From NCBI GenBank assembly GCA_963731265.1, contig CAVSUE010000001.1, positions 480,001 through 544,000 on the forward strand: 64,000 nucleotides of DNA, given 5' to 3'. The stretch's first letter is position 1. Each line of letters opens with the position of its first letter. Shown here piece by piece: positions 34,995 to 37,502 of this stretch. The stretch comes from an uncultured Verrucomicrobiae bacterium (GTDB taxonomy: Bacteria; Chlamydiota; Chlamydiia; Chlamydiales; Rhabdochlamydiaceae). The notes beneath the pieces are model-generated. The model saw only the letters and a list, made by a program, of their open reading frames with translations. It searched no databases and had not been told where the DNA came from. The translations under genes were made by a program, and so were the position numbers.

Positions 34995-37502
34995 TTAGAA
35001 AAAAGTGGAAAGGGGATCGACGTCGATAAAAAGGCGCACTCTATTTGTCCACGCGGGCAAAAGGGCTGGCAAACGTCCTAATTTTTCGGCTTTGATGAGA
35101 AATTGGTAACGGAGTTCCCCTTTTATTTTCGCATGTCCACAGGGAACGATCGGAAAGATCTCGAAATGGGAAGGGAGTCGGCTGATGAGGTCGGTGCGCA
35201 GAGCTTCAGCTGCATCCTGTACCTCGTCCCCATTTTTTCCGGAGAACGTGAACTTCACAAGGCGTGTAAAGGGTGGGTATTTGAACAGTTCCCGGACGGC
35301 GATCTCATACTCAAAGAATTTTCCGTAGTCTTGATCTTTGGCCATTTCAATCACCGGATGATGGGGAAGATGCGTTTGAATGATCACCTCGCCGTTTAAG
35401 GCTCCACGGCCTGATCTGCCGGCGACCTGAGTGAGCAGCTGGAACACATTTTCAGAGGCGCGGAAATCGGGGATCTGCAAACTGCCGTCCGCATTTAAAA
35501 CTCCCACCAAAGTCACTTGAGGGAAGTGGAGCCCTTTCGCGATCATTTGCGTCCCAATCAGGATGTCGGCTTTGCCGGCGCGGAATTGTTTGAACAGCAC
35601 ATCATGGCTTCCTTTATGGCGAGTCGTGTCCGCATCGAGCCGAAGGGTCCTGATGTTGGGCAATAAAGCGTGCAGGGCGCGTTCGACCATCTCTGTCCCC
35701 GCGCCCTTGAACTTAAGATCGCCTTCGGCTTTGCAACTCGGGCATGTGCGGGGGGGAGGCGATAGGCGAAAGTCGCAAAGATGGCAGGCGAGTACATTCT
35801 CCCCAAGGTGAAAAGTGAGATTGGCATCGCAATGGGGGCATTGCAGAATATGGGAGCACTTTTTGCACATTTGCGCGGTGTGATAGCCGCGCCGATTCAG
35901 GAAGAGCATGACCTGTTCGCCGATTTCTACCCGCTTTTTGATAGAGGTCAATAAGCGGTCGGAAAAGAGGGTAAATCCTTTTGCTTTGGCAAATTCGTCT
36001 TTCATATCGACGATCGACACCTCCGGCATGAGGGCGTGATCGGCGCGCTTTTTTAGGGTGCTTAGCTGGTATTTCCCTTTTTTGACATTGGAATAGCTCT
36101 CGATGCTCGGGGTAGCGCTCCCGAGAACGACGGAGGCGTTTGCTATCTTGCCCCGCATGACGGCGACATCGCGTGCATGATAGGCGGGCTGCTCTTCCGA
36201 TTGTTTGTAGGAGCCTTCATGTTCTTCGTCGACGATGATCAGTCCGAGGTTCTGTATCGGGCTGAATACGGAGGAGCGAGCGCCGATCGCGATCATCGCG
36301 TTGCCATCGCGCATCTGATGCCAGGCATCAAACCGTTCCCCCTGGGAGAGGCGGTAATGCAAAATGGCGATTTTTTCCTGAAAACGGGTTCTTAATTTTT
36401 CGATCATCTGCGACGTCAGCGCAATTTCAGGGACGAGGAACAGAACTCCCTTTTTGAGCTGCAGTGCCTGCTGCATCGCCTGGAGGTAGATTTCCGTTTT
36501 ACCGCTGCCTGTCACACCGTGGAGAAGCCGCACTTCAAATCGATTTTGCTGCAAGCTTGTGCAAATCTGCTTCAAACCCTCTTGCTGCTCCTCGTTTAAA
36601 GTTTTGGCTTTCGTCGGAAAATATTCTTCATCGGCCAAAAGAGAACGGTCGACTTGAATTTTTTGACTCAGCAAAATCTTCTTTTTGATCAGACTTTCAA
36701 TCGGACTTCGGGAAGTTGTTTCCAACAGTTTAGAAAGGAATATTCCCTTTGGTGACTGAAGGACGGCATCGAGAACAGATGCTTGAGGAGGATGGGACTT
36801 CCTCAGCGCATCGCAAAGGGAGGCAAGCTGGTTCATCGACACTGCGGGCTTGATCAAAAGCTGCAGTTTGGCTTTTGCTTTGCCTCGCACGCTGGAGGGA
36901 AGAATTGTTTTCAGCACTTTTCGGAGAGGCGTGCAGTAGTATTCCGACATCCATGCGGCCAAACGAAATAATTCAGGGGTCACATGGGTTTTATCGGAAA
37001 GGACTACGGCGATTTCTTGCAATTTGCCAAACGTGCTGCTGGACTTGATCGCGATGACGGTTCCTTGTCTTGCCGACCGGCGAACGGGGATCTGTACGCG
37101 TGATCCGACCTCTACTTTTCCTTTAAGCTCCTCAGAAATCCAGTAATCGAGTGGGCGGTCGAGGGCGTCGTCTAAAACAACTTCGGCTATACCGCGCTCC
37201 GTCAGGTTTTGTGAATTTGGACTGGCTGCGGCTTTGCCAAATCGATCAGCCCGGTTCACTTCGTTCACCTGCTTTGCACTGCGAAAGTCCACCGGACTTT
37301 CGCGTGTCTCCGCAGCCTCTTCAGCCGTTCCAGTCTCTTCGGAGTTTGAACTCTGAGGAGACCTGCAACCATCCTTTAATGGTTGCAGCCCTATTCGGGA
37401 ATGTTCTTCCTCGTTCGGCCGCTTCGCTTCGATTTTGCTTTGCCTCGCAGAGTCCAAATTTATAAATCCTTCCTGCGCGCGGTATTTTTTAGCATCTGGC
37501 AT
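34995..37502 (-). CDS. priA: Primosomal protein N' with in-frame MITE insertion near the N-terminus (start 37502 or 37514)
   Basis: GVTGSGKTE, DEEH, SATP, four CxxC pairs, GTQMIAKG, QVAGRSGR. Confidence 0.95.
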   Translation of the reverse strand: MPDAKKYRAQEGFINLDSARQSKIEAKRPNEEEHSRIGLQPLKDGCRSPQSSNSEETGTAEEAAETRESPVDFRSAKQVNEVNRADRFGKAAASPNSQNLTERGIAEVVLDDALDRPLDYWISEELKGKVEVGSRVQIPVRRSARQGTVIAIKSSSTFGKLQEIAVVLSDKTHVTPELFRLAAWMSEYYCTPLRKVLKTILPSSVRGKAKAKLQLLIKPAVSMNQLASLCDALRKSHPPQASVLDAVLQSPKGIFLSKLLETTSRSPIESLIKKKILLSQKIQVDRSLLADEEYFPTKAKTLNEEQQEGLKQICTSLQQNRFEVRLLHGVTGSGKTEIYLQAMQQALQLKKGVLFLVPEIALTSQMIEKLRTRFQEKIAILHYRLSQGERFDAWHQMRDGNAMIAIGARSSVFSPIQNLGLIIVDEEHEGSYKQSEEQPAYHARDVAVMRGKIANASVVLGSATPSIESYSNVKKGKYQLSTLKKRADHALMPEVSIVDMKDEFAKAKGFTLFSDRLLTSIKKRVEIGEQVMLFLNRRGYHTAQMCKKCSHILQCPHCDANLTFHLGENVLACHLCDFRLSPPPRTCPSCKAEGDLKFKGAGTEMVERALHALLPNIRTLRLDADTTRHKGSHDVLFKQFRAGKADILIGTQMIAKGLHFPQVTLVGVLNADGSLQIPDFRASENVFQLLTQVAGRSGRGALNGEVIIQTHLPHHPVIEMAKDQDYGKFFEYEIAVRELFKYPPFTRLVKFTFSGKNGDEVQDAAEALRTDLISRLPSHFEIFPIVPCGHAKIKGELRYQFLIKAEKLGRLPALLPAWTNRVRLFIDVDPLSTFF
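37188..37486. mobile_element. Family B MITE, copy 2, inside priA
   Basis: Same TIRs and core as 29308-29528; net insertion 297 bp. Confidence 0.88.

Follow-up and report, generated by a model that had tools for sequence, protein, structure and literature searches.

The subject of this analysis is priA, the gene for the replication-restart helicase PriA, together with a small repeated element, termed family B here, that lies within its first codons. Both were found in a 64,000-nucleotide (nt) stretch of DNA from an uncultured bacterium (assembly GCA_963731265.1, contig CAVSUE010000001.1, positions 480,001 to 544,000). This whole stretch is referred to as the window and coordinates are positions within it; the genome to which it belongs is G000, and other G numbers denote relatives. 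The priA open reading frame (ORF) overlaps the end of an upstream gene at its beginning (Table 1), and the ATG at 37502, the start position shared with most priA orthologues, is intact and still lies within this overlap. The minus-strand codons read ATG GAA AAC GCT ATG CCA GAT GCT AAA AAA / TAC CGC GCG...GAG CGC GGT / ATA GCC GAA GTT GTT. In the protein, MENAMPDAKK is followed by 98 residues (YRAQEGFINLD...SQNLTERG), after which comes IAEVVLDD. The plus-strand context is GGC-TA-[TACCGCGC...GCGCGGTA]-TT-TTTTAGC, where the TA at 37188-37189 and base 37190 together form the Ile codon ATA (37190-37188, minus strand) that opens the conserved IAEVVLDD. The explanation that we favour, and consider fairly probable, is that a miniature inverted-repeat transposable element (MITE) of ~295 nt inserted in priA codon 7 with a stop-free frame, that it is read through, and that the extended PriA is tolerated.

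Comparison with relatives revealed the insertion directly. PriA was present in 31 of the 31 genomes searched (this genome and 30 relatives), and it is single copy in this genome. An earlier reading of the window made from its letters alone (the sequence-only reading) had placed a family B element between MPDAK and IAEVVLD with no stop in the priA frame, and had suggested an alignment with PriA orthologues. Both points are borne out: the element contains no stop in that frame, the corresponding sites in relatives are empty, and none of the 30 relatives' PriA proteins aligned over ORF residues 11-87. The N termini of 11 orthologues from the same genus took the form (L)ENxM-S/P-DA-x-x followed by 0-7 residues and then IAEV. 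In two genomes of the same genus, empty sites were read as ATG TCA GAT GCT GAA AAA ATA GCT GAG in G002 and as ATG CCA GAT GCT CAA AAA GTA GCT GAG in G003. Metagenome contigs from three public runs (X2, X3 and X4) were ~5% divergent from the window (in X2, 14 differences over 290 nt and 17 over 316 nt) and joined position 37189 to 37485, with exactly 295 nt skipped. A single plus-strand C stands in place of the 295 nt in these contigs, giving GCT AAA AAA GTA GCC and the protein sequence MPDAKKVAEV.

All empty sites carry six codons ahead of the Ile or Val of IAEV. Relative to the closest of them, this genome has gained a net 294 nt (295 nt in exchange for one base), that is, 98 codons and the replacement of Val by Ile. 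The 99 codons claimed by the sequence-only reading are correctly counted as those between MPDAK and IAEV, but the net gain is 98. Its reconstructed uninterrupted start, MPDAK-IAEV with five codons, does not match the real empty sites, the closest of which reads MPDAKK-VAEV. The simplest history would be a TA-duplicating insertion of 297 nt into GTA (or ATA), after which the start-side junction lost that codon. On comparison with the empty sites, the TT at this junction may mean either that 3 nt are missing from what a clean TA-duplicating insertion would leave or that one TA was mutated. The latter is the substitution in the right-hand TA that had been assumed earlier, and it stands as an alternative account of the TT, but it needs an extra codon deletion elsewhere.

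A further run, X1, may be the source sample. Its 151-nt records showed 0 differences from the window over 37162-37312 and 37451-37585 and bridged both junctions. Misplacement of a repeat copy into priA during assembly, a concern raised with the original proposal, is hardly credible in light of these records. Although a repeated element can confuse or break assemblies, and one X1 record departs from the window 35 nt into the element, the X1 records match flank and element together at both junctions, including the copy-specific TTTATAAAT (consensus TTCACAAAA). The TAC and GGT-ATA junction codons also recur at most in-frame copies and fit the family rule described below. It is likewise very improbable that the element is removed before translation, either from RNA or by DNA excision in part of the population, such that native PriA is made. 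Removal from RNA had been raised by the sequence-only reading, and nothing supports it directly. No joint across the element was found in X1, those of X2-X4 lie in contigs that differ at many positions and are other strains, and Rfam gave no match in 36900-39100, including to any intron or ribozyme. With the frame open removal would be needless, and excision of the 295-nt core alone would shift the frame.

Stops are absent from the priA frame of the element, and number 6 and 2 in the other frames of the same strand and 1, 3 and 1 on the opposite strand. Among composition-matched shuffles, 200 of 20000 had one stop-free frame. The 98-residue insert comprises 67 disorder-promoting residues and 32 charged residues, with a mean hydropathy of -1.27; it includes the tryptic stretch YRAQEGFINLDSAR...ADRFGK and passes into PriA at ...TERGIAEVVLDDALDR. 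Downstream of it, the full set of PriA domains, comprising the 3' DNA-binding domain, helicase core, Cys-rich region and C-terminal domain, was recognised by Pfam (PF17764, PF00270/PF04851, PF00271, PF18319 and PF18074), with profile position 1 of PriA_3primeBD falling at ORF residue 111. No Pfam family was found within ORF residues 1-110, and no NCBIfam family for the insert peptide. The protein scored 871 bits against NCBIfam NF004066 (cutoff 813) and E about 1e-125 against PDB entries 8fak/4nl4/6dgd, and I105 (MPDAK numbering) pairs with residue 3 of Escherichia coli PriA (8fak_H). Given that the PriA fold begins at the Ile codon 37190-37188, the insert amounts to an N-terminal addition directly before a complete PriA.

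Family B is dispersed in this genome. With the three copies of the window as the source of an nhmmer profile, a search of the 2.34-Mb genome gave 56 hits, which fall into 28 loci. Fourteen copies are two-ended: 13 inverted-repeat pairs found with an end-pattern regular expression (137-325 nt apart) and one found by nhmmer only. The copies are modular, with ~60-nt conserved ends around variable inner blocks and total lengths of 173-359 nt, and the copy nearest to that of priA shows 94.3% identity over 299 nt. The terminal inverted repeats have arms of ~36-60 nt, starting TATACCGCGC / TATACTGCGCCC. TA duplication is clean at lpxK (empty AAATTACGCC; filled AAAT-TA-[TACC..GGTA]-TA-GGCC) and at pyrB (empty ...TTTTAGGAGAA; filled ...TCT-TA-[GAC..GTC]-TA-GGAGAA), and imperfect at priA, rnr, nusB and folC. 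The mobile character proposed earlier is confirmed by the inverted ends, the TA duplication (perfect at lpxK and pyrB), the 28 nhmmer loci and the empty orthologous sites. By its size, inverted ends, TA duplication, dispersed copies and presence/absence polymorphism, family B is a MITE.

Six of the 14 two-ended copies lie inside conserved genes, namely priA, rnr, folC, lpxK, nusB and pyrB, with gene names taken from NCBIfam matches above curated cutoffs. A genome-wide count of in-frame copies had been called for by the sequence-only reading. Strand and frame are as in priA, and native residues resume in frame, in six of six, a count that is partly circular in that in-gene copies were recognised by the open frame spanning them. 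All six sites are empty in both G003 and G002. The remaining eight copies stand at gene boundaries, where at most one of them (C1:455556) could split a gene as judged from the inspected flanks, and just one of the eight is stop-free in the priA-type frame. Given that ~90% of the window is coding (a crude count of 48 ORFs and 19149 amino acids (aa)), random insertion would put ~10 of the 14 copies out of frame in genes. The finding of at most one gene-splitting copy indicates that disruptive insertions are purged and that one frame is tolerated.

The in-gene copies obey a common junction rule: the host nTA codon (Leu, Ile or Val) stays intact, the element contributes TAC...GGT, and the final A of the element together with the duplicated TA gives ATA (Ile), which accounts for the shared frame. 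The recurrent L/I-Y...ERG-I at the insert borders is a consequence of this rule. An 845-aa frame of G002 that carries the element peptide was considered as RNase R, but it belongs to another gene, and G002 lacks the RNase R insertion. The folC copy (G000 C1:848191-848560) is closely flanked by an ATG on either side, the downstream one 6 nt past the GGAG of the element, and the element may here supply the ribosome-binding site to a restored native folC start.

Table 1. Features of the priA locus and positions of family B copies (window coordinates, or position within the host gene)
Feature	Position	Strand	Description or basis
priA ORF	34995..37514	-	839 aa from first ATG
Upstream overlapping gene	37460..38134	-	224 aa, overlaps priA start
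Element core	37190..37484	+	295 nt, TACCGCGC...GCGCGGTA; minus strand gives 98 codons in priA frame
TA target dinucleotide, priA-body side	37188..37189	+	Sequence; TA duplication seen at lpxK and pyrB copies
TT in expected second-TA position	37485..37486	+	Comparison with empty sites
Inverted-repeat arm, priA-body side	37188..37250	+	Begins TATACCGCGCTCCGTCAGGTTTTGTGAATTTGGACT
Inverted-repeat arm, priA-start side	37420..37486	+	Inverted-repeat analysis
In-frame TTG, codon 16 from MPDAK	37455..37457	-	2 nt past upstream TAA; AAGGA 9 nt upstream
AGGTGA (37270-37265), 5 nt, in-frame GTG (37259-37257, codon 82)	37257..37270	-	Sequence motif
GGAG (37200-37197), 6 nt, ATA (37190-37188)	37188..37200	-	Shine-Dalgarno-like, codon non-canonical
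Further family B copy in window	29304-29531
Further family B copy in window	38710-38994
priA copy	past codon 6
RNase R (rnr) copy	past codon 17		G003 empty: ...KTKKEPKVRKPP
FolC copy	past ATG-A		G003 empty: MNFEQLIDRL
LpxK copy	39 residues from end		G003 empty: ...EKDYVKLRPDPSLCLKIE...; both halves conserved
NusB copy	11 residues from end
PyrB copy	5 residues from end

The insertion also altered the upstream gene. Its TAA (37462-37460) and its last eight codons (NTARRKDL) lie in the element, such that the protein now ends ...CQMLKNTARRKDL; relative to ...MLKK, the new end ...MLKNTARRKDL* has the last Lys replaced and seven residues added. The displaced stop and the ending NTARRKDL had been described correctly beforehand, but the original end is MLKK* rather than the MLK* then reconstructed. 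In insertion-free relatives the gene ends ...LKK* in 9 of 9 cases found by pattern matching, and in two further cases found by eye, and across the genus the C terminus LWKTLCQMLKK* shows high conservation. The gene matched no Pfam or NCBIfam family. The nearest Atlas clusters are hypothetical proteins, mostly from Chlamydiota (score 0.90), and the product is a lineage-restricted hypothetical protein. A weak Atlas lead (0.86) pointed to clusters in which 13-14% of members have a DNA polymerase III psi domain. The family B copy at 38710-38994 lies directly upstream of the gene at 38130-38708 (minus strand), the first of a three-gene run that ends in priA; the priA operon thus holds two family B copies, one at its 5' edge.

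The leader of PriA varies in length among relatives. Ahead of IAEV it comprises 5-12 residues in 10 of the 11 same-genus orthologues, and in two orthologues the usual ATG is replaced and a later ATG must serve. In G006, a different palindromic repeat of 163 nt lies in frame at the same spot in priA (L008:1335-1497), giving a 61-residue leader and turning the end of the upstream gene into ...CQYLT*; this repeat occurs at 3 places in G006 (89-100% identity) and at none in G000. The crystallised PriA chain 6dgd_A has 20 residues before its Met. Given this variation in leader length and the 20 additional residues of 6dgd_A, the position tolerates extra sequence.

The following sequence of events is proposed. 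A non-autonomous MITE of ~295 nt would recently have landed at a TA in priA codon 7, where one orientation and frame of the six is without stops and the length of the element would preserve the frame. Ribosomes would most likely start at ATG 37502 or re-initiate past the new stop of the upstream gene, for which TTG 37457 is a possible site; either start would yield 89-98 element-derived residues. The read-through product would be a complete PriA fold behind ~90-100 extra residues that are hydrophilic and, by composition, probably disordered. This insert would be tolerated because it comes before the 3' DNA-binding domain's first strand, where leader length varies among relatives. Within genes, family B would survive solely in this frame and other genic insertions would be purged, leaving a pattern like that of the Rickettsia palindromic elements (RPEs). 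The insertion itself, its frame, the empty sites and the pattern across the family are observed, and translation through the insert and retained PriA function are what we infer.

The element also contains signals from which PriA could start later, at GTG codon 82 or at the terminal ATA. The protein would then contain 0-23 element residues and the open frame upstream of the start would be incidental. Both AGGTGA-GTG and GGAG-ATA motifs are present, the former marking a possible internal start that would leave 23 element-derived residues. At the folC copy the GGAG, with 6 nt of spacing, precedes an ATG that restores the native-like MDFEQVIDRL, and a public TsaE-like protein has been called from within the element. 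The RNA structure may matter as well. Folded by itself, the element reached -125.9 kcal/mol and its two terminal 70-nt segments formed 42 pairs with each other, and a 381-nt region folded at -142.1 kcal/mol against -111.9 +/- 5.8 in shuffles (z = -5.2); a hairpin of this kind could hinder ribosomes coming from the old ATG. By contrast, an internal start leaves 98 stop-free codons unexplained, which just 1% of shuffles match, and the internal copies in LpxK, MutS, an FtsX-like protein and an SNF2 helicase must be read through. The region of GTG codon 82 is itself buried in the predicted RNA fold, and ATA is a very poor start codon. An internal start, one of the outcomes that the sequence-only reading had seen as contrary to it, is thus rather unlikely.

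The same hairpin, lost translational coupling or RNase cleavage might instead cripple priA expression, in which case the gene would be a very young pseudogene. The insertion is indeed recent, the strong RNA structure lies directly past the start codon, and RNase III cuts transcripts of Correia elements at their inverted repeats, according to the available text of PMC10969869. Yet priA is present in all the genomes searched and has no second copy here, its 2.5 kb contain no frameshift or stop, and the uninterrupted helices of the element RNA are at most 9-11 bp long. After its divergence from G003, this lineage accrued 36 synonymous and 18 non-synonymous changes in priA, and the G003 lineage 41 and 15 (727 codons, with G002 as outgroup and 38 ambiguous sites set aside). 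The ratio is thus like that of the sister lineage, and there is no sign of relaxed constraint in priA, though most of these changes may predate the insertion. The restriction of the family to one open frame in genes likewise argues for selection to stay translatable. Overall, a crippled priA is improbable. Near the element, a scan for promoters and terminators gave no hit on the priA strand, and its overall counts were not above those of shuffles.

Several observations weigh against tolerated read-through, the explanation preferred here. The insertion is young, being absent from contigs just ~5% divergent, so that neither the unbroken ORF nor the substitution counts reveal much on function after the insertion. 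All seven insertions tested (six in this genome and one in G001) are lineage-specific, and none of them points to long-term retention. At priA the TA duplication is not clean, and in one X1 record the 16 letters ahead of 37451 are unlike the window. In-frame alternative starts with Shine-Dalgarno-like motifs (GTG codon 82 and ATA) occur in the element, and the predicted long imperfect hairpin of the transcript begins 17 nt past the ATG. An autonomous partner of family B was not found in this genome, where inverted-repeat pairs were never more than 325 nt apart. The circularity of the six-of-six count, noted above, belongs here too.

A candidate partner, an IS630-like insertion sequence (IS; 1233 bp, DDE_3), was rejected, its ends (CTAGTGCTCCTTAAAG...) being unrelated to those of family B; where such an element stands beside the copy at C1:718455, it simply cut that copy. 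The IS630-like IS has 37-nt ends and lies at C1:394874-396106, C1:718732-719962, C1:1522-1883 and C2:338173-339043 of G000, with a solo end in the window at 58926-58961. Contigs C1 and C2 probably join through it, given the partial copies at the C1 start and the C2 end. Small palindromic repeats abound in this genome. At 34817-34980, 15 nt past the priA stop, stands a 164-nt palindromic element (TATACCGGACTCGGCC...GGCCGAGTCCGGTATA) that has 4 locations genome-wide; it shares its 7 outermost nt with family B, which suggests that one enzyme mobilises both. Another two families of hairpin-forming repeats (6493-6612, 20047-20167 and 10610-10739) occur at 49 and 44 places in the genome, counted as matches of at least 60 nt.

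Family B extends beyond this genome. At E <= 1e-6, the 98-aa peptide was matched in 7 of 19 genomes of the genus, and among the matches listed none came from 12 genomes of other families (there were 30 further matches). A search of a large protein collection for longer proteins gave 16 with the peptide at E <= 1e-5 over 44-100% of its length, nine of which were inspected. Internal inserts were seen in MutS (878 aa), an FtsX-like protein (761 aa), an SNF2 helicase (from a Rhabdochlamydiaceae bacterium according to its source) and a DUF455 protein, and one further internal insert separates a methyltransferase from a HAD domain. N-terminal inserts were seen in a histidine kinase and in TsaE, the start of the TsaE-like protein being called within the element (MNLDSARQ), and C-terminal inserts in two public proteins. 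The FtsX-like insertion of G001 is missing from the orthologues in G005, G013, G002 and G000, and from such comparisons family B looks recently active.

The analogy with RPEs drawn by the sequence-only reading gains from this distribution, as five further conserved genes carry copies on the same strand and in the same frame and 16 public proteins contain the peptide. Its chlamydial host is also upheld. Five matches to TLC nucleotide transporters (four of them strong) were found in this genome, against 0 of 14 control genomes, and the histone-like protein Hc1 is present. Chlam_OMP6 (PF03504) was unmatched in this genome, and the control for that profile was likewise without a match. An exact-pattern scan for the inverted end located 13 loci in 9 records of metagenome-assembled genomes, with titles naming Rhabdochlamydiaceae, Chlamydiae (three), Parachlamydiales, Verrucomicrobia(e) (three) and 'uncultured bacterium'. 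Given the TLC transporters, Hc1 and the names of related proteins and records, the host is chlamydia-like and probably related to Rhabdochlamydiaceae. Some of the related 'Verrucomicrobia' record titles look outdated; the gene content of this genome fits chlamydiae.

A bolder proposal, which we advance tentatively, is that family B is more than what selection has left, namely a MITE shaped for translatability, acting as an active source of new protein termini and of linkers between domains across Rhabdochlamydiaceae-like chlamydiae, with the PriA extension being made. Its one stop-free frame would code a hydrophilic linker, and its TA would be read as codon positions 2-3, such that the host nTA is kept and an Ile added. 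Shine-Dalgarno and start motifs near both ends would allow it to land at either gene end or inside genes without destroying them; these motifs are AGGAAGG-4 nt-GTG in the consensus and a GGAG 6 nt ahead of the terminal TA.

Two other loci of the window were recorded. At 50130-54392, three tandem paralogous genes (about 470 aa each) contain internal repeats of 120 nt (40 aa) that are 60-83% alike, and no family was found for them. A UmuD/UmuC-like pair of the polymerase V type lies at 55050-56718 on the minus strand, an unusual cargo for a reduced intracellular genome; UmuD scored 170 bits (cutoff 110) and UmuC 401 bits, just below its cutoff of 431.

In-frame fusions of small repeats to genes are established for RPEs, ERIC, pneumococcal BOX, Coxiella QMITE1 and Anabaena MITEs, with RPEs singled out for frequency in the available text of the review PMC10969869, which describes the RPE work of Ogata et al. 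2000 and in which 'chlamyd' appears nowhere. Family B resembles RPEs as a short, transposase-less hairpin repeat of an obligate intracellular bacterium that lies in frame in many unrelated housekeeping genes, with one conserved stop-free frame and an unbroken host protein. The likeness drawn here is one of pattern, and the numbers differ, with 28 loci here against the 526 RPEs of R. bellii, 53 of them in genes (PMC1458961, in the part available). Family B is also longer and modular inside (173-359 nt, against about 150 bp for RPEs in the same text of PMC10969869), with a clear TA duplication. Its host is chlamydia-like and thus of another phylum, and lineage specificity held for each of the family B insertions tested.

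Correia elements of Neisseria show TA duplication. They further resemble family B in being small, with inverted ends beginning TATA, and their co-transcription yields hairpin RNAs (PMC10969869, available text). Compared by description, most Correia elements lie between genes and influence promoters and RNase III processing, whereas family B lies in frame in genes. ERIC, BOX, QMITE1 and the Anabaena MITEs also have an open frame through which they can be fused with host ORFs (available text of PMC10969869), but family B has 6 of its 14 full copies in conserved genes, all in one frame. No report of MITE or palindromic in-frame insertions in Chlamydiae or Rhabdochlamydia was found in a literature search that had subscription journals and supplements outside its reach, and in the accessible part of PMC9997750 insertion sequences and transposases alone are discussed for Rhabdochlamydia. 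Thus, in-frame MITE fusions are known, and what is new is this element family, the phylum for the behaviour and the presence of priA among the targets.

For annotation, the inserts are a warning, in that they inflate protein lengths, mimic novel domains, shift start calls and break short-read assemblies. Their presence/absence polymorphism among strains ~5% apart makes them ready typing markers for uncultured chlamydiae, and they offer a natural experiment on the amount of added sequence that PriA, LpxK, MutS and other proteins tolerate. Genic selfish DNA, best known from Rickettsia, would here have arisen independently in a second obligate intracellular lineage; its occurrence in a second lineage points to lifestyle (small populations and weak selection), rather than lineage, as the cause.

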